64,000 nucleotides of DNA, from NCBI GenBank assembly GCA_034431935.1, contig DAOUCU010000059.1:2132-66131 (forward strand), given 5' to 3'. Below the pieces are notes generated by a model that saw only the letters and a list, made by a program, of their open reading frames with translations, had not been told where the DNA came from and ran no database searches. This document shows, one piece after another, positions 3,919-49,704 of the stretch (the first letter of the stretch is position 1; each line of letters starts with the position of its first letter). Both the position numbers and the translations under genes were made by a program. Origin of the DNA: Dehalococcoidia bacterium (lineage in GTDB: Bacteria > Chloroflexota > Dehalococcoidia > GIF9 > JBFMDU01).

Positions 3919-5173
3919 CACCCCATAGTCCGTTGCTGGCGTATCCAATGAGCCGGGCATGAAGGAACATGTTGGTGATGGGCCTTCCGCTTTTCGTAAA
4001 GACACGAAGGTAGTTTGAAGTCAAACCGGAGTAGATCCCGCTTCCCGGCAGCGTCTCGGCTTCCCAGAGTATCCGTTGTACGGAACCGATCATGTTCTCT
4101 CGGAATTTTCTCGCTGAACTGCGCGCCAGGCTTAATGCTTTAAGTGTCCGTTCCCGTTTGACTGATACTGGTACTTGTTGCGGCATCCCAGCGGCGGCCG
4201 TTTCCGGCCGTGGCGAGAATGGGAAAACATGCACGGCAGAGAAACCGCACGCCTCGACGAAGGCACAGCTTTCGGCGAAGTGGCGGTCATTCTCGCCGGG
4301 GAAACCAATAATGAGGTCGGTGGTAATGCCGGCGTCTGGCACATATTCGCGAATCATGGCCAGGGTTTGGCGGTAGGCGTTTGCTGAGTAACCCCGCTTC
4401 ATTGCGGCCAAGGTGGCATCGCAGCCGCTCTGGAGGGCGACATGGAAATGACGGGCTAGCCTGGGGTCCTGCCAGGATGACAGCATCTCCGCCGTAATCT
4501 GGCGCGGCTGGAGTGATGACAGATGCAGTCTCTCCAGCGAGGTCTCATTGAGAACACGTTTGATAAGCCCGGCGAGATTAACGGTCTGGTGGTTGTAGGT
4601 TCCGATTTCCGTTCCGGTCAGCACGACCTCTTTGTATCCCATGGCGATGCGGCGGTTTATCTCGGCCACGACCTGGTCAGGCGGTGTTGAATAAACGTCA
4701 TGACGTATTCTGGGCACGATGCAATAGGCGCAGGAACGGTGACAGCCGTCCTGAATTTTGATAAAACTGCGCGTCCTGAATCGCGGTTGGGGTGCGTTGT
4801 CGGTGTTGTTGTGTGTATCGTTGCCAAGGCGTTGTGCAATGAGCTGAGCGAGACGTTCTTTGTCGTGGTTACCGTAGATTAGGTCGGCACCGAGGCGGTT
4901 AAGCTCGGGTGCCGCCCTTTCGGCATAGCACCCGGTGACTATTACCAGACTGTCTGGGCTCTGCCGGCGCGCCCGTCTTAGCCATTGCCGTGCTTTGCGG
5001 TCGGCAACGTGGGTAACGGTGCAGGTATTGAGCACCATCACGTCTGCGGGACTATCATCAGTCACGGCATATCCAAAGCTGGCGAGTTGCAGGGCGATAC
5101 TTTCGCTCTCGGCCTGGTTAAGCTTGCAGCCATGGGTTTGCAGGCATATCCTTATGGGTTTGGAGTTTCCCAT
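3908..5173 (-). CDS. mtaB: Radical-SAM methylthiotransferase of the MiaB/RimO/MtaB family (MtaB-like, tRNA ms2t6A)
   Basis: 421 aa. The N-terminal MTTase domain has Cys in [16 protein letters not shown] and VTGCYAE. The radical-SAM motif [11 protein letters not shown] is present. Confidence 0.85.
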
Positions 5174-5333
5174 ATCATGGCATTATAAGATTGGCCCGGC
5201 AGGTGGTCAAAAAAGTCAGGGTTATCCCTGCCTGGGACTGTACGAGTCGTTTTGCAAGGGTTGTCTCGTTTGTGGTATAAACCGCGGAACTAGTGGCGGG
5301 TGTCCCGCTCGGGTAATGGAGGCATTGGCAATT

Positions 5334-6584
5334 ATGAGTCGTCGTGTTGTGGTTACCGGACTTGGGGTTATCAGTCCTCTCGGGTTGAATGTTGCGGATA
5401 CCTGGAAGAATGCCATATCCGGCAAGTCAGGTGTCGGCCCGATTACCCATTTTGATGCTAGCGGGTATGAAGTCAGAATTGCTGCGGAAGTTAAGGGGTT
5501 CGACCCCGGCGTCTATTTGGACCGCAAAGAAGCCCGGCACATGGACAGGTTCAGCCAGTTCGCGCTGGCGGCGACACTTCAGGCGATGCGGGAATCGGGT
5601 CTGAAGGTGGACGAGACGAATCAGGACGATGTTGGCGTGCTGTTTGGAAGCGGTGTCGGCGGCATACTTACTATTTACAATCAGGTCAGGATGCTTGTGG
5701 AAAAAGGTCATGACCGGGTGAGCCCATTCACCGTCCCGATGATGATTGCTGATGCGGCTTCGGGGCAGATTTCCATCAGGCTCGGCGTGCGCGGGCCAAA
5801 TCTCTGCGCCACGTCGGCGTGTTCGAGCAGTTCCGATGCTATCGGTGAGGCTTATGAGATAGTAAAGCGCGGTGATGCAGTAGCGATGATAACCGGCGGC
5901 AGTGAAGCGCCGATTAACCCGTTTGGCATCGCCGGGTTTCACGCGGCACGGGCACTTTCCACCAGTAATGCTGAGCCAGAGAAAGCCTCACGGCCGTTCG
6001 ACGCCAAGCGTGATGGTTTCGTAATGGGAGAAGGCGCTGCGGTGCTGGTTCTTGAGGAGCTCGAGCATGCTCTGGCCAGAGGAGCCAGGATCATCGCTGA
6101 GATAGTCGGCTACGGGGCGACCAGCGATGCCTACCACATAACTCAGCCCATGGAAGATGGTGATGGGGCTGGTCGGGCCATGATGAAAGCATTGAAGAAA
6201 GCTGGCCTCCGGCCGTCGGACGTGAACTATATCAATGCCCACGGGACTTCGACACCGCTTAACGACAAGTGTGAGACTATTGCTATTAAGAAAGTGTTCG
6301 GCGAGTATGCACGCTCAATCCCGATTAGCTCGACAAAGTCGATGACCGGGCATTTACTGGGGGCGGCGGGGGCTCTGGAGGCTGTTTTTACCATCCTTGC
6401 CATCAGGGACGGTATCGTCCCGCCGACTATCAACCTGGTTAACGCTGATCCGGACTGTGACCTTGACTATGTTCCTAATCAGGCGCGTCAGGTGGAGGTC
6501 GAAGTTGCAATGTCAAATACCTTTGGCTTCGGCGGTCATAACTCGGTGTTGGTCTTCAGAAGGTACACCGGGGCGCCGGCGTGA
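5334..6584 (+). CDS. fabF: 3-oxoacyl-[ACP] synthase II
   Basis: [17 protein letters not shown] with a Cys-His-His KAS II layout (ATSACSSS...HGTSTP...GHLLGAAG). GGAGG lies 11 nt upstream of the ATG at 5334. The longer ORF from 4935 is a spurious N-terminal extension that overlaps mtaB. Confidence 0.9.
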
Positions 6585-8263
6585 TCAAGAGCGATTGGAG
6601 AGTTCTGCCGCCAGTACCAACGGACGTACTGTCATCTGAAGAGCTGCCGCCTCTACTGCGGCAGCTCCTTTATAATCGCGGCGTCAGGGATGTTGTCCAG
6701 GCCAGAGCTTTCCTTGCCGCGGATAACACCAGTGGCGGTGACCCATTTGCCCTGCCTGACATGGATGCCGCAGTCAGCCGTATCTACCGGGCCCTACTTT
6801 CGAGCGAAAAGATTGCTGTCTATGGTGATTTCGATGCCGATGGTATTACTTCCACAGCCCTGCTTGTGGAAGGTCTCTCTTTACTTGGAGCCTCGGTTGT
6901 ACCCTACATCCCGCACCGCATTAACGAGGGATACGGGCTTCGCGCTAACAGCCTTGATAAGCTTCGGCAGGCTGGCGTCAGTCTGGTGATCACGTGTGAT
7001 TCTGGCATCACCGCCATCGAGGAAGTCAGGTACGCTCAGAAGATTGGACTTGATGTCATCGTGACCGATCATCACCACCCGCTTTCGTCGTTGCCGCGCG
7101 CCTGTGCCGTGGTAAACCCGAAGCGTAAGGATTCGCGGTATCGCTTTCCGGATTTGGCTGGGGTTGGGGTTGCCTACAAACTGCTTGAGGCGCTGTTTTG
7201 GGGGACCCGTCGGCGAAATGAGGTCAACAAATTCCTGGACCTGGTGGCGCTGGGTACCATTGCCGACATGTCGCCGCTGCTTGGAGAGAATCGATATCTG
7301 GTCAAAAGGGGGTTGGATCTTCTACGCTTGGGTCAACGTCCCGGGGTATGCGAGCTGGTGCGGCGAGCTGGGCTTGGACTGGAAAGCATAACTGCAGAGA
7401 CGGTTTCCTGGGTCTTGGGGCCACGGCTAAACTCCGCGGGGCGCCTTGACGAAGCTATTCCCAGCTATGACTTGCTGGTTACCAGGGATGTGGCTGAGGC
7501 GGGCAGACTGGCAGAGGAGCTTGAGCGGCGTAATGCCGAGCGCCAGCAACTTACCAAATCGGTGCTATCGAGTGTCCGTGCGATAATTCAAGAGACGGAA
7601 GCTACTTCGCCAGTACTGTTTGCCGGAGGAGAGGAATACCCGCCGGGAGTCGTTGGACTGGTTGCCGGGAAGCTGGTCGAGGAGTTCTATCGTCCGGTCT
7701 GTATCATAAAGAAAGGTGACGGGGTGTGTCGCGGAAGCGCTCGCAGTATACCTGAATTCGACCTGATGACTGCTCTGGAACAGTGCGCCGACCTGCTTAT
7801 TGAGTTCGGCGGCCATTCGCGGGCAGCCGGGTTTACGGTATCAAGTCAGAGACTGCCAGAGTTTGAAAGCCGTATGCGTGATCTGGCATCCAGACAGCTC
7901 CAGGGACTTGACCTGCGGCCGCACATTATTATTGACGCCGAAGTGCCACTGTCGTCTCTTAATCGAAATGTTTACAACACTATCCAGCAACTGGCACCCT
8001 TTGGCGTCGGTAACCCGGTTCCGGTGCTGTTGAGCCGCCGGGTCAAACTGGTTGAATCTCGCAGGATGGGTGGTCATGGTGAGCATCTACGCCTGAAGTT
8101 GAGGGATAAGAGCGCAGTCTGGCAGGGCGTCGGCTTTGGGCTGGGGAGTCTGGAGAGCGGGCTTGGGCCCTACGTTGACGTGGTCTATGATTTTGATTTG
8201 GATCGCTGGCGCGGCGAAGAAACGCTCCGGCTTAACCTGCTTGGTGTGGCCCCGAGTCAGTAG
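6581..8263 (+). CDS. recJ: Single-stranded-DNA-specific exonuclease RecJ
   Basis: 560 aa. DHH motifs ([22 protein letters not shown]) and a DHHA1 region (GGHSRAAGF). There is a 4-nt ATGA overlap with fabF. Confidence 0.9.
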
Positions 8264-9059
8264 TAGCGGTTGAGGATGTGATGACGGCGGTTTGGGCGCG
8301 GCGTATTCTAACGACCAGTATCGCCGCGGCGGTGAGCAGTACCGTCAAGCTGATAACCTGTGCCTGCAACAGGCCAGCGAGCGGCAGTTCTCCCTCCCGT
8401 ACGAAACGGATCGCAAAATCACCGGTGGCGTACGCAATCAGATAGAGAAGGAAGAGAGCCCCCTGCGGACGGATGCGGTAGCGGGCCCATAACAGCAGTC
8501 CGAAAACGGCTAGGTTCCACAGGAGGAGGTACACCTGGGCCGGATGAACGGCTATGCCGACTGGTGCGAAGCTTTTCGGATCGGTCCATATGAATGCCCA
8601 TGGCGCATCGGTCGGTGTACCGTAACAACACCCGTTGAGGGTACAGCCAACCCGTCCTATTGCCTGGGCCAGCACGGCTCCGGGAGCAACGGTGTCTCCC
8701 AGCTTCCAGAATGATATGCGCTTGCGCCAGGCATAGAGTCCGGTAGCTATTGCCGCGCCCAGGATAGCTCCCCAGACGGCAAAGCCCTCGAAGCCGAATA
8801 CCTCAAGCGGGTGCTGGGAATAGTAGCTCCAGTGGTCAACGATGTGGACGAGTCTGGCGCCGATGATTCCGGCCAGAATGGCATATGCCGCCAGTTCGTA
8901 AATCTGTTCTCTGGAGATGCCGTAGCGCCTTGCCTCACGGGCCGAAAAAAGCACTACGGCTACCATGGCCAGTACAATCATGATACCGTACCAGGCAACG
9001 GCCAGCGGTCCAATCCGAAAAGCAATCGGGTTTACCGGGATAGTTATGACAGCATTCAC
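8232..9059 (-). CDS. lgt: Prolipoprotein diacylglyceryl transferase
   Basis: 275 aa membrane protein with the Lgt signature GRVGCTLNGCCYGTP. Its 3' end overlaps the recJ 3' end by 32 nt (convergent). Confidence 0.9.
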   Translation of the reverse strand: MNAVITIPVNPIAFRIGPLAVAWYGIMIVLAMVAVVLFSAREARRYGISREQIYELAAYAILAGIIGARLVHIVDHWSYYSQHPLEVFGFEGFAVWGAILGAAIATGLYAWRKRISFWKLGDTVAPGAVLAQAIGRVGCTLNGCCYGTPTDAPWAFIWTDPKSFAPVGIAVHPAQVYLLLWNLAVFGLLLWARYRIRPQGALFLLYLIAYATGDFAIRFVREGELPLAGLLQAQVISLTVLLTAAAILVVRIRRAQTAVITSSTATTDSGPHQAG

Positions 9060-47272: not shown

Positions 47273-47305
47273 AATGACCGGCCGTATCAGCGCCGGACGG
47301 TCATT
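47273..47305 (+). other. Inverted repeat immediately upstream of the MFS-like ORF
   Basis: AATGACCG-(17 nt)-CGGTCATT, 8-bp arms. Confidence 0.25.
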
Positions 47306-49704
47306 TGGATATAGGTGATCAATTGGAAGGCGACCACGGGCGTTCCGGTTTATCCGGAATGCTTTCTCGTGAGCAGGTCAGGTCGAGCATAAGGTACTCC
47401 ACCGGTGAAGGGGTGGCGTCGGCGGCGAGTGAAGGAGCGACAGAGGAGTACTATGTTCCCTATGCACTGGCGGCCGGCGCATCAGCTTCAATTGTCGGTT
47501 GGCTGGTTGCTCTGGCGCAGCTGGCGCTGGCACTATGCTATTTAAAGGTCCCCGACTACGTCAGAAAGATAGGCAGCCGCAGGCGTTCTATTCTCGTCCT
47601 AGTTTTCGTTGATGTTGTCACCTTTCTACCCTTCGTGATTCTTCCGTTCCTGGTCAGAGACTATTTGGTCCAGACTATTTTCCTGTTTTACATTCTTTCG
47701 GTTGTTCCCACCATCGTCGTCGGCCCTATCTGGGCAAGCTGGATAACGGACCTGGTACCAGTGGGGGTTCGAGGCAGGTATCTGGGCCAGCGACTGACGT
47801 TTATGGGAGCCAGCGAACTGGCTTGCTTCATTGCCGCCGGAGTAATATTGAACTGGTTCAGCGGTCAGGTATTTGTTGGTTTCTCCATTATCTTCACTTT
47901 CGCCGCGCTAGCGAGACTGGCCTCATGGTTCATGTACTGGAAGATGAATGAGGTTCCGATAATACGGCGGGAAGAGGTCAGTCATTTCGGCTTCCACGAT
48001 GTGATGCCGGCGTTAAAGAATGGCAATGTCGGCCAGTTTATGGTATTTGCCGCGTCTTTGTATTTCACAATTTTCCTGGCGTCGCCTTTCTTCGCCGTGT
48101 TCATGCTTACGGAACTCAAATTCTCTTATCTGGCGTTTATGATTGTTATCTGCAGTGAGCAGGCGGCGCGGCTGGTCATTCTCAGGTTCTGGGGAAAGTA
48201 CGCCGACGCTAGGGGCAGTCTGAAGGTCGTAAAACTGGTATCTGTGGTTATCCCGGTAGTTCCGGCTTTGTGGCTGGTGTCTCAAAACATCATCTACCTT
48301 GTTTTCGTTCAGATAATTACAGGTCTGGCTCTGGCCGGGTTTGAGCTTTGCGCGGCCAATTTCATGTATGGGGCGGCGCCAACAGGCGGCCGCATTAAGT
48401 ATATAGCGTTGTTCCGTTCTCTTAACGGTATAGGGGCTGCGGCTGGTGCTTTGCTTGGCGGATATCTGGCAATAGTATTGGTCCCCATCTTCGGGCATAA
48501 GCTGCTGGCGCTTTTCCTGTTGTCCGGGATACTGCGCGGCGTCGTTGTTCTGAAGTTCCTGCCGCCGATAATCGATGTCTCTTTGAAAAGCGCTAAGAAA
48601 CCGGCGTGGGGTACCTTTCGGCCCAAAGGCATGCTGGCGGATGACGCTATCAGCGATGGTTTTGGCTGGGGACTGTTATACATACCCGAAAGCATGCGTC
48701 GCGATTTGAGTCGTGTTTTCGACATGGACCGGGGGCTTCTCCATGAGAAGTCCCACCCGGGCAGGGAAGGACTGTTTCAAAGGTGGGCGCGTCTCGCGGA
48801 GCGGCATCACGTTGTGGATGGGCCGCCGCCATCGCCGGGATCTGGTCAGCGCGAGGAATTGAGGCGCGCTGGTCTAATACATCTGGCGGCTGGCCAGGCC
48901 GCGGAAAGGCGTGTTAATGGGGAAAAGAAGACGTCTGCAGGTGAAAAAAGCCTGCACTATGGTGAGAGGTTATGGCACCGTCTCCGGCGGCGGTTCGGAA
49001 TCGAGACCGCGGCGTCTTCCGCGCAGGCTCGGGCCGGGGTTGCCTTACTTCATAATGTCGAGATCAGGCAGAAGGTGTCCGAGGCAGCGCTCAGTCAAGG
49101 TAATGCTGAGGTCTCAGGTCGAGAATGGCGCAGCGACCTGCGTCAGAAATGGTTGCGGGATGCCCTTAAACAGTGTGCGCAGACCGGGGGAAAAGCTCCA
49201 GTGGAGACAGGCAAGGCTCGGACTTTCGAGGGGCTACTTCATAACTCACGGGCATGGCAGGCGCACCTTGGTAAAGCTTCCAAGAATGGTGCAGGCTCGA
49301 GTGGCCAGCTTCAGCCAGAAGCCAGGATAGAAGGCCTGCTGCACAGAGATGGTGCACGGGAGGCGTTTAGGAGCCGGTCAGACGGTAACAGTGTGGGTGA
49401 CCATGGTGGCAAAACAAGTTCGTCCCATCGTGAAGGACTGCTTTATGATGAACGTGCGTGGGGTAGGTATCTTGGAGACTCGGGCAAGAGTTGGGACGCG
49501 CATGGTGAGATTGGAAATGTTACCCAGCCCGGTCAGCTTGGTACGGATAGGCGGAACGAAGTCCTGACTCGCGTAGATACGTGGAGTATGGAAAAACGTC
49601 AGGTATGGCGCATCGACAGGAGAGTCTCGGGTAGGGCAATGGTAGCGAGGTTAAGGAGTGGGCTAAACGAATTCGGTCGGAAGCGGTCCCGTTATTCTTT
49701 TTAA
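47305..49704 (+). CDS. MFS-like multi-pass membrane transporter (11-12 TM) with a ~350-aa hydrophilic C-terminal tail carrying repeated GLL(H/Y) motifs
   Basis: 799-aa continuous ORF. The ORF-track start is TTG; an in-frame ATG lies at 47359. TM segments occupy the first ~440 aa. The tail contains seven G-L-(L/I)-(H/Y) motifs: GLLY, RGLLHEK, GLIHL, ALLHN, EGLLHNSRAW, EGLLHRDGA and EGLLYDERAW. Confidence 0.6.
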   Translation: MDIGDQLEGDHGRSGLSGMLSREQVRSSIRYSTGEGVASAASEGATEEYYVPYALAAGASASIVGWLVALAQLALALCYLKVPDYVRKIGSRRRSILVLVFVDVVTFLPFVILPFLVRDYLVQTIFLFYILSVVPTIVVGPIWASWITDLVPVGVRGRYLGQRLTFMGASELACFIAAGVILNWFSGQVFVGFSIIFTFAALARLASWFMYWKMNEVPIIRREEVSHFGFHDVMPALKNGNVGQFMVFAASLYFTIFLASPFFAVFMLTELKFSYLAFMIVICSEQAARLVILRFWGKYADARGSLKVVKLVSVVIPVVPALWLVSQNIIYLVFVQIITGLALAGFELCAANFMYGAAPTGGRIKYIALFRSLNGIGAAAGALLGGYLAIVLVPIFGHKLLALFLLSGILRGVVVLKFLPPIIDVSLKSAKKPAWGTFRPKGMLADDAISDGFGWGLLYIPESMRRDLSRVFDMDRGLLHEKSHPGREGLFQRWARLAERHHVVDGPPPSPGSGQREELRRAGLIHLAAGQAAERRVNGEKKTSAGEKSLHYGERLWHRLRRRFGIETAASSAQARAGVALLHNVEIRQKVSEAALSQGNAEVSGREWRSDLRQKWLRDALKQCAQTGGKAPVETGKARTFEGLLHNSRAWQAHLGKASKNGAGSSGQLQPEARIEGLLHRDGAREAFRSRSDGNSVGDHGGKTSSSHREGLLYDERAWGRYLGDSGKSWDAHGEIGNVTQPGQLGTDRRNEVLTRVDTWSMEKRQVWRIDRRVSGRAMVARLRSGLNEFGRKRSRYSF

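Follow-up and report, generated by a model that had tools for sequence, protein, structure and literature searches.

A 14-residue repeat in the tails of one clade of Chloroflexota transporters of the major facilitator superfamily

The cytoplasmic tails of the transporters ProP and BetP are about 50-60 residues long, form single helices or coiled coils, and are not repetitive. Arrays of short linear motifs on long disordered tails have been studied well in transporters of eukaryotes but, to our knowledge, are hardly described in bacteria. ProP of E. coli belongs to the major facilitator superfamily (MFS); its activity is controlled by an extended C-terminal domain in the cytoplasm, which associates with lipids of the membrane, and the C-terminal domain of BetP is used in a similar way (PMC10710835). 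In the alga Chlamydomonas, RBMP1 and RBMP2 are transmembrane proteins whose disordered regions contain multiple Trp-centred motifs with a Pro 2-3 residues upstream; these motifs bind Rubisco and have been proposed to bring it to the pyrenoid tubules (PMC7673724). The Rubisco-binding motif of EPYC1, RBMP1/2 and SAGA1/2 reads [D/N]W[R/K]xx[L/I/V/A] (PMC7673724). The subject of this article is a gene in a 64,000-nucleotide stretch of DNA from a Dehalococcoidia bacterium (contig DAOUCU010000059.1 of assembly GCA_034431935.1; the whole stretch is called the window), which encodes an MFS transporter with a long C-terminal tail built on a repeated short motif.

The gene lies on the forward (+) strand at 47305..49704, stop codon included. 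In the list of open reading frames (ORFs) it is a single ORF of 799 amino acids with a TTG start; an identical protein, P0001, is encoded in the metagenome-assembled genome (MAG) GCA_964523555.1, and homologues are full length. What is new is the repeat in the tail, since the membrane domain is that of an ordinary, if unclassified, MFS transporter. By sequence comparison, the repeat is a family absent from Pfam, NCBIfam and the PDB and limited to one Chloroflexota MFS clade.

The repeat core is 14 residues long: [RK]-x-G-L-[FL]-[YH]-x-P-x-x-W-x-x-[FY]. A hidden Markov model (HMM) of the repeat was built iteratively from distant homologues, giving 191 instances from about 50 proteins. Counted from the glycine, information is high at G1, L2, [FL]3, [YH]4, P6, W9 and [FY]12; the motif is both real and ancient. 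The glycine is present in 78% of instances, the leucine in 89%, the proline in 70%, the tryptophan in 96% and the last Tyr or Phe in 74%; position 3 is F, L or Y, while position 4 is Y (63%), H (29%) or N (6%). In the family logo, the residue before the Trp is A or E and the one after it A, S or E; the third residue after the Trp is Y or F, and the fourth is not conserved. Much cleaner copies than those of the window protein are held by distant homologues, 31-48% identical to it in the MFS domain, for instance RGLFYRPREWAAF, RGLLHRPKEWSQL and EGLLHKPAAWTSM. The motif can be represented by the 20-mer peptide SHREGLLYDERAWGRYLGD, and the consensus of one of the two subclades described below, subclade B, is NRGLFYRPREWAAFGRQ.

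All of the information is confined to these 14 positions, and linker positions carry none. The linkers are unrelated in sequence, rich in Pro and Gly, and 26 to 38 residues long. The distance from copy to copy has a median of 34 residues (interquartile range 32-36), with secondary peaks near 65-70 and 100 because copies in between have decayed. Across the family, tails of 130-450 residues carry from 2 to 8 or more copies. Together, the residues P, Q, S, T, A, G and N account for 40-59% of every long repeat-bearing tail, and all tails are net positive, by +1 to +13 per 100 residues, with no counter-charged blocks.

In the window protein the tail comprises residues 431-799 (48595..49701, +). It is hydrophilic, with 13% R, 12% G and 2.8% W over about 370 residues, has a net charge of about +23, and is predicted to be mostly disordered. 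The strict pattern G-[LI]-[LI]-[HY] is found with its glycine at 456, 477, 523, 643, 677 and 711, and looser forms are ALLH at 580-583 and EGLF at 488-491. Six occurrences compare with a mean of 0.03 and a maximum of 2 in 20,000 shuffles that preserve tail composition, making the pattern about 200 times commoner than in shuffled tails.

The GLL(H/Y) repeats from which a preliminary description of this gene started are therefore real, although that description counted at least seven and the strict count is six. Two of the six, at 477 and 523, should be treated as chance or decayed copies, because even the closest relatives do not conserve them. The E-G-L-L-(H/Y) form occurs three times and not four; the (R/K)AW-type segment said to follow it is present as RAW at 643 and 711, whereas 677 has GAR. 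Nor is GLL(H/Y) alone the conserved unit, which is rather the 14-residue motif with Pro at +6, Trp at +9 and an aromatic residue at +12, recurring with a period of about 34 residues.

A position-specific scoring matrix (PSSM), trained solely on proteins outside the window's own subclade, recognizes three canonical copies on the + strand, spaced by 34 and again 34 residues. Repeat 1 is FE-GLLHNSRAWQAH (residues 641-654, 49225..49266), which scores 18.1 bits at G643 with the PSSM and 23.5 bits with the HMM. Repeat 2 is IE-GLLHRDGAREAF (residues 675-688, 49327..49368; 11.8 bits at G677), in which the Trp is replaced by Arg. Repeat 3 is RE-GLLYDERAWGRY (residues 709-722, 49429..49470; 26.8 bits at G711). 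The scores of 643 and 711 were reached at none of about 700,000 shuffled positions, and that of 677 would be matched by chance about 0.002 times per tail. Overall, 10 positions of the tail exceed the 99th percentile of the PSSM, against 3.5 +/- 1.8 in shuffles. The substitution in repeat 2 concerns residue 685 (49345-49347), where the 85%-identical relative P0002 has Trp (GAW, in GLLHRDGAWEAF) and P0003 also has Arg; the cause is either decay of this copy or a variant introduced by sequencing or assembly.

A further, juxtamembrane variant of the repeat, GW-GLLYIPESMRRD, occupies residues 454-467 (48664..48705, +), where subclade B has its first repeat. In this copy (GWGLLYIPESM) the Gly, Leu, Tyr and Pro are kept and Met stands in place of Trp. 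Its PSSM score at G456 is 3.5 bits (p about 1.6e-4 per position), and it is conserved as GWGLLY(I/V)PE or GWALLY(A/V)P in all relatives from subclade A, to which the window belongs.

Between this variant and repeat 1 lies an Arg-rich, partly helical region with degenerate copies (residues 490-630, 48772..49194, +), characterized with AlphaFold2 (AF2), the PSSM and alignment with loci L014, L001 and L016. The degenerate copies of the tail's middle are GLFQRW at G489, SLHYGERLWHRL at S549, ALLHNVEIRQKV at A580, and W616, and their Trp or Leu positions are conserved within the subclade. Taken singly, the copies at 489, 549 and 580 score at about chance level; collectively they are in excess. The predicted helices of this region (491-502, 511-535, 545-564, 585-597 and 607-627) have a predicted local distance difference test score (pLDDT) of 45-70. 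The region is present in the window subclade and absent from subclade B.

The distribution of the repeat was examined with HMMER, using a 32-column profile made from 31 repeat units against 1.84 billion representative proteins. At E <= 1e-3 there were 39 matching proteins, and all but two were C-terminal tails of the same MFS family or fragments of such tails. The two others, P0060 and P0062 (E about 1e-4), are unrelated repetitive proteins. Whether the tail exists in homologues as a gene of its own was a question of the preliminary description; the one short match checked as a candidate "stand-alone tail" begins at base 22 of its contig and is a contig-edge fragment.

That description had not recognized the repeat, and the databases agree with it. 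In Pfam, the window protein and seven homologues gave nothing other than MFS at E <= 1, and the scores of DUF4481, Reovirus_M2 and LacY_symp are far below their cut-offs. No NCBIfam family matched the window protein at E <= 1. Against PDB sequences, the best E value was 0.59 for the repeat profile and 0.72 for the whole protein. A literature search on disordered MFS tails in Chloroflexi found nothing relevant.

Among GTDB species genomes, the tailed form is found only in MAGs of Chloroflexota/Dehalococcoidia, apart from one contig labelled Phycisphaerae (L011, JAOUFU010000551.1). This contig is probably mis-binned. It also carries a HATPase_c_3 protein about 94% identical to those of the Chloroflexi contigs L003 and L009, and its MFS fragment, compared by eye, is closely like its counterparts there.

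In a neighbour-joining tree of MFS domains, the tailed proteins form one clade with two subclades, A and B, about 33-40% identical to each other in the membrane domain. Tail-less homologues of about 445 amino acids, from WOR-3, Woesearchaeota, Pseudomonadota and others, fall outside it as an outgroup, and the repeat is present in every sister-clade member that is not cut off at a contig end. Neither of the two findings that the preliminary description had named as contrary to it was therefore made. Because all tailed proteins form one clade with the tail-less ones outside, the tree points to a tail that was acquired once and kept since. No tandem repeats were found at the DNA level within the gene; the repetition is thus old and visible only in the protein.

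The tail of the window protein could be compared with the relatives P0002 (85% identity), P0003 and P0004 (both 72%), all of which have the whole tail in frame, with indels that are in-frame only. The ratio of nonsynonymous to synonymous substitution (dN/dS), estimated by the Nei-Gojobori method against the DNA of relatives, is 0.23-0.41 for the whole tail, up to 0.41-0.50 in some segments, and 0.13-0.30 in the block with the three canonical repeats; the MFS domain, compared with close relatives, has 0.07-0.09. Selection on the tail is purifying, relaxed but clear. Since the frame is kept with in-frame indels only and at such dN/dS values, it is genuinely coding, as the preliminary description had argued from the repeats themselves.

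A reading in which the tail is a non-functional read-through, either a chance open frame or a recent, neutrally drifting extension, could appeal to this relaxed constraint, to the canonical copy without Trp and to the two GLL[HY] instances that are not conserved. It is effectively excluded, since every relative retains the frame, all dN/dS values are below 1, and the motif, far commoner than in shuffles, is conserved between subclades that differ so widely in the MFS domain.

The membrane domain spans residues about 20-430 (47362..48594, +) and consists of 12 transmembrane (TM) helices in two six-helix halves. It matches Pfam MFS_1 (PF07690) in two stretches with 40.8 bits (E = 1.7e-10), above the curated gathering score of 33.4; homologues score 29-100 bits. 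AF2 places its 12 helices at residues 22-431 with pLDDT > 90. Foldseek, run with this model against the PDB, returned 375 matches at E <= 1e-3, headed by MelB, ferroportin, NorA and VMAT, with target TM-scores of 0.7-0.8 and 12-17% identity to the solved MFS proteins. The window protein is a secondary transporter of the MFS, which gives a family to what had been called a transporter-like membrane protein. The structural neighbours (MelB, ferroportin, NorA, VMAT and YajR) are generic MFS proteins and offer no clue to the substrate.

The side of the membrane on which the tail lies can be judged from charge. The loops predicted to be inside hold 20 Lys and Arg residues against 3 in the outside loops, and the basic cytoplasmic loops include KIGSRRRS between TM2 and TM3 and WGKYADARGSLK between TM8 and TM9. 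Motif-A-type basic loops are present at both of these places (YVRKIGSRRRSI and WGKYADARGSLKVVKL), together with an N-in/C-in topology. Because of this charge bias and the net positive charge of all family tails, the tail is placed in the cytoplasm, in agreement with the preliminary description.

Some MFS antiporters, MdfA among them, use acidic pairs embedded in the membrane in TM1 for coupling to protons or cations. In the tailed clade, TM1 holds two nearly invariant glutamates 8 residues apart, E35 and E43, along with Y49 (47407-47451).

AF2 was run on two distant members of the family, the window protein and P0017, whose model likewise has a 12-helix MFS core with pLDDT > 90. In the tails pLDDT is 26-70 and 31-66, respectively, and the only recurrent structure is a short helix per motif. 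In P0017 this helix begins at or within one residue of each motif's Pro; in the window protein, helices 648-660, 684-692 and 716-722 begin 1-3 residues past GLL[HY]. Neither model indicates packing of one repeat on another.

The helical hydrophobic moment is 0.40 for motif cores and 0.16 for linkers. On the Wimley-White interfacial scale, the 12-residue core has a mean energy of -0.4 kcal/mol, compared with +4.1 kcal/mol for linkers. The window copies range from -0.3 to +3.2 kcal/mol, with positive values for three of the four scored (G456, G677 and G711). Because the mean for the core is only slightly negative, spontaneous membrane insertion is predicted to be weak.

The reading favoured here, tentatively and with a probability somewhat short of even, is that the tail is a multivalent array of short linear motifs that docks a cytoplasmic partner. 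The tail would reach into the cytoplasm as a disordered, net-positive chain of units of about 34 residues. In each unit, the core would consist of an extended G-L-aromatic stretch followed by a Pro-capped amphipathic helix of two to three turns, with the Trp and the Phe/Tyr on one face, and would dock into a pocket on a soluble protein, or oligomer, of the cytoplasm. With 3-10 copies per tail, on flexible linkers of constrained length, the partner could then be bound multivalently, so that one of the two, partner or transporter, is tethered or clustered at the other, and transport is coupled to localisation or regulation. We infer both protein binding by the motif and its outcome, be it tethering, clustering or regulation. 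An unlikely elaboration of docking makes the tail a membrane-tether scaffold that recruits a specific oligomeric assembly of the cytoplasm to the membrane and clusters it there, be this a complex of metabolic enzymes, a polymer of the cytoskeleton or of cell division, or a condensate; it would be a prokaryotic counterpart of the RBMP/EPYC1 logic, with its spacing tuned to the geometry of the partner.

A motif array is preferred over a folded domain because the Gly/Pro/Trp epitope is fixed, linkers are unconserved, copy number varies and disorder is predicted, with one nascent helix in each unit. The fixed spacing of Gly, Pro and Trp seems typical of a specific binding epitope and not of generic amphipathicity. 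The spacing of copies is constrained despite unrelated linkers and also counts in favour of docking, as do the age of the motif, the single acquisition of the tail to which the tree points, the selection on the tail, the AF2 models with their motif-linked helices, and the weak membrane insertion predicted for the core. The Rubisco-binding motifs of Chlamydomonas are a precedent for the logic (PMC7673724). Several points weigh on the other side. The constant period could be no more than a relic of the unit that was duplicated in the ancestor. Only two canonical copies are intact in the window protein, 677 having lost its Trp, and multivalency is modest. The motif was found neither in other ORFs of the window, searched in six frames, nor in the fetched loci, and it occurs in no other protein family among the representative proteins searched; being limited to MFS tails, it provides no independent set of "clients" that would point to a receptor. 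No gene neighbour is conserved across both subclades, and none points to a partner. Finally, disorder predicted by AF2 from a shallow alignment is weak evidence.

The tail may have a sensor or anchor role, as suggested in the preliminary description. In one such reading it would be regulatory in the manner of ProP and BetP: basic and rich in aromatic residues, it would lie against the inner surface of the anionic membrane, or against the cytoplasmic loops of the transporter itself, be released when ionic strength or lipid order changes, and so act as an osmo- or ionic-strength sensor that switches transport. This is rather doubtful, being less probable than docking. The net positive charge of every tail in the family fits it, as do the enrichment of cores over linkers in interfacial L, F, Y and W, their higher hydrophobic moment, and the extra Arg-rich helices at 490-630 in the window subclade. 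There is a precedent in E. coli ProP, an MFS protein with a lipid-associating C-terminal domain (PMC10710835), and a very indirect hint of an amino-acid-derived solute comes from the KamA-like, ATP-grasp and GNAT neighbours of the tail-less relatives P0012 and P0019. However, the free energy calculated for placing the core at the interface is about zero, a fixed spacing of invariant Gly, Pro and Trp is rare in lipid-binding helices, and 3-10 motif copies spread over 130-450 residues far exceed the known sensor tails. No sequence relation to ProP was found in NCBIfam at E <= 1. With regard to a dimerising antiparallel coiled coil and salt-dependent lipid association of the tail, as in ProP, AF2 shows only the low-confidence helices of the middle region, and the calculated interfacial energies are weak.

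Alternatively, the tails may associate with themselves, with aromatic and Arg cores as stickers and P/A/S/T/Q-rich linkers as spacers, so that the transporter clusters in membrane patches or a condensate with no folded partner. The regular spacing of candidate stickers, the composition of the long tails, their predicted disorder and their variable copy number are all consistent with this, but the strict conservation of G1, P6 and W9 exceeds the needs of sticker chemistry and the tails have no blocks of opposite charge to balance their net positive charge; such self-association is improbable. Less probable again, to the point of being very unlikely, is a folded repeat domain, for instance a 34-residue helical or solenoid repeat like the tetratricopeptide repeat (TPR), that binds a ligand or metal. 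The period is tightly kept and His is frequent at position 4 in the window subclade, but no Pfam repeat family, TPR included, matches the tail, packing is absent from the AF2 models of two distant members, and the linkers hold no conserved residues. The metal- or ligand-binding tail that had been considered initially is unlikely also on account of position 4 itself, where the mixture of Tyr, His and Asn does not suit a metal ligand, and of the absence of a conserved pattern of Cys, His, Asp or Glu.

The neighbourhoods of the gene differ between clades. In the window, the gene is preceded by recG and argS and followed by trpS and by genes for an inositol monophosphatase and an aminotransferase. 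The argS-MFS-trpS context is common to the loci of P0002, P0003 and P0004, and the order argS-MFS-trpS-suhB is restricted to close relatives of the window. A link between these flanking genes and the Arg- and Trp-rich tail was dismissed as coincidence, the synteny being absent from other clades.

In part of subclade B (L003, L007, L008 and L009), the order is ftsA, ftsZ, a 70-aa ORF, a HATPase_c_3 gene (about 505 aa), the tailed MFS gene, an ORF of about 133 aa, and a LigT-like gene. The MFS gene thus stands among neighbours that include cell-division genes. This order (about 1-6300 in L003) is found neither in the window nor in L002. The small ORFs downstream of the MFS gene in L002 and L003, compared as possible counterparts, are unrelated to each other.

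A gene with a bifunctional-nuclease domain (BFN_dom, PF02577) adjoins the MFS gene in two distant members, the tailed P0009 and the tail-less P0016. It lies at 4735-5310 in L002 and at 5430-5939 in L017, L018 and L019; the two BFN proteins are 41% identical, and the gene is not present in the window. The tail-less P0012 and P0019 stand directly upstream of a KamA-like radical-SAM (LAM_C) gene (5956-7293 in L020, 5018-6355 in L021). In L022 two genes for ATP-grasp ligases and one for a GNAT acetyltransferase come after it, the whole group spanning 5025-8844. These neighbours of tail-less relatives may hint that the MFS family moves an amino-acid-derived compound.

The start codon of the gene is uncertain. 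An alternative to TTG 47305 is ATG 47359 (MLSREQV...), which is used by P0004; two members of the identical-protein cluster have 781 amino acids, in line with this start, and the first 18 residues of the window protein show little conservation in P0003.

Two long antisense ORFs lie inside the gene, at 48013-48498 (-) and 48309-48725 (-). The former was rejected as a separate gene and is a shadow of the conserved sense frame, because its apparent homologues in L002, L003 and L006 are also antisense to MFS genes. The latter had no match across the compared loci and is most likely a shadow as well.

The protein ends in FGRKRSRYSF (residues 790-799, 49672..49701, +), a feature recognized by comparing the C-termini of the family. 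From P0013 to P0065, and in the window, these recurrently combine a cluster of basic residues with a short final stretch that is apolar or aromatic. Endings in the window subclade are ..GRKRSRYSF, ..GRKRFPNPF and ..SRKRFPSNF, and in subclade B mostly ..[RK]x[RKQ][TP]A(P)x[LV]LA, ..PALA or ..APA, as in ..RxRTAPSLA, ..LQPATVLA and ..VAPALA. Such an end could be a second signal, for example an ssrA-like degron or a ligand for a PDZ domain or protease.

Sharply defined and only about 14 residues long, the repeat could go straight into a database as a new family or repeat model. Its motif provides a peptide handle, suitable for a search for partners or for tests of membrane sensing, in a phylum that has been little studied and is for the most part uncultured. 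A partner, if there is one, would reveal how a transporter is linked to a cytoplasmic machine in these bacteria; membrane sensing by the tail would represent a new design of transporter autoregulation. Should neither hold, the tail would be a well-documented lineage-specific decoration of an ordinary transporter.

The protein can finally be set beside the known systems. With generic MFS proteins (MelB, ferroportin/SLC40, NorA, VMAT and YajR) it shares a pair of six-helix bundles with 12 TM helices in all, basic loops of motif-A type following TM2 and TM8, and cytoplasmic termini at both ends, but its 370-residue repeat tail has no counterpart there and it falls into no NCBIfam subfamily. With ProP and BetP it shares the architecture of a secondary transporter with a basic cytoplasmic C-terminal extension, which in those two is thought to be regulatory via lipids or neighbouring protomers (PMC10710835). 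It differs from them in tail length and in the repetition of a motif defined by G, P and W, and no sequence similarity was detected in NCBIfam. The TPR has a similar period of about 34 residues; the tail, however, has no Pfam TPR match and no predicted helix-turn-helix, only one short helix per unit and pLDDT < 70.

The tail motif was also considered as an algal Rubisco-binding motif and rejected, since it does not fit the consensus [D/N]-W-[R/K]-x-x-[L/I/V/A]: the family has W-x-x-[FY], with G-L-[FL]-[YH] 5-8 residues upstream, and the residue after the Trp is not basic. Between a eukaryotic alga and the Chloroflexota, whose motif is not known to have any relation to Rubisco, the analogy is one of design only. 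It lies in a multicopy motif that is centred on a Trp and has a Pro 2-3 residues before it and basic residues before that, of the kind carried in the alga by disordered, multivalent tethers (PMC7673724).

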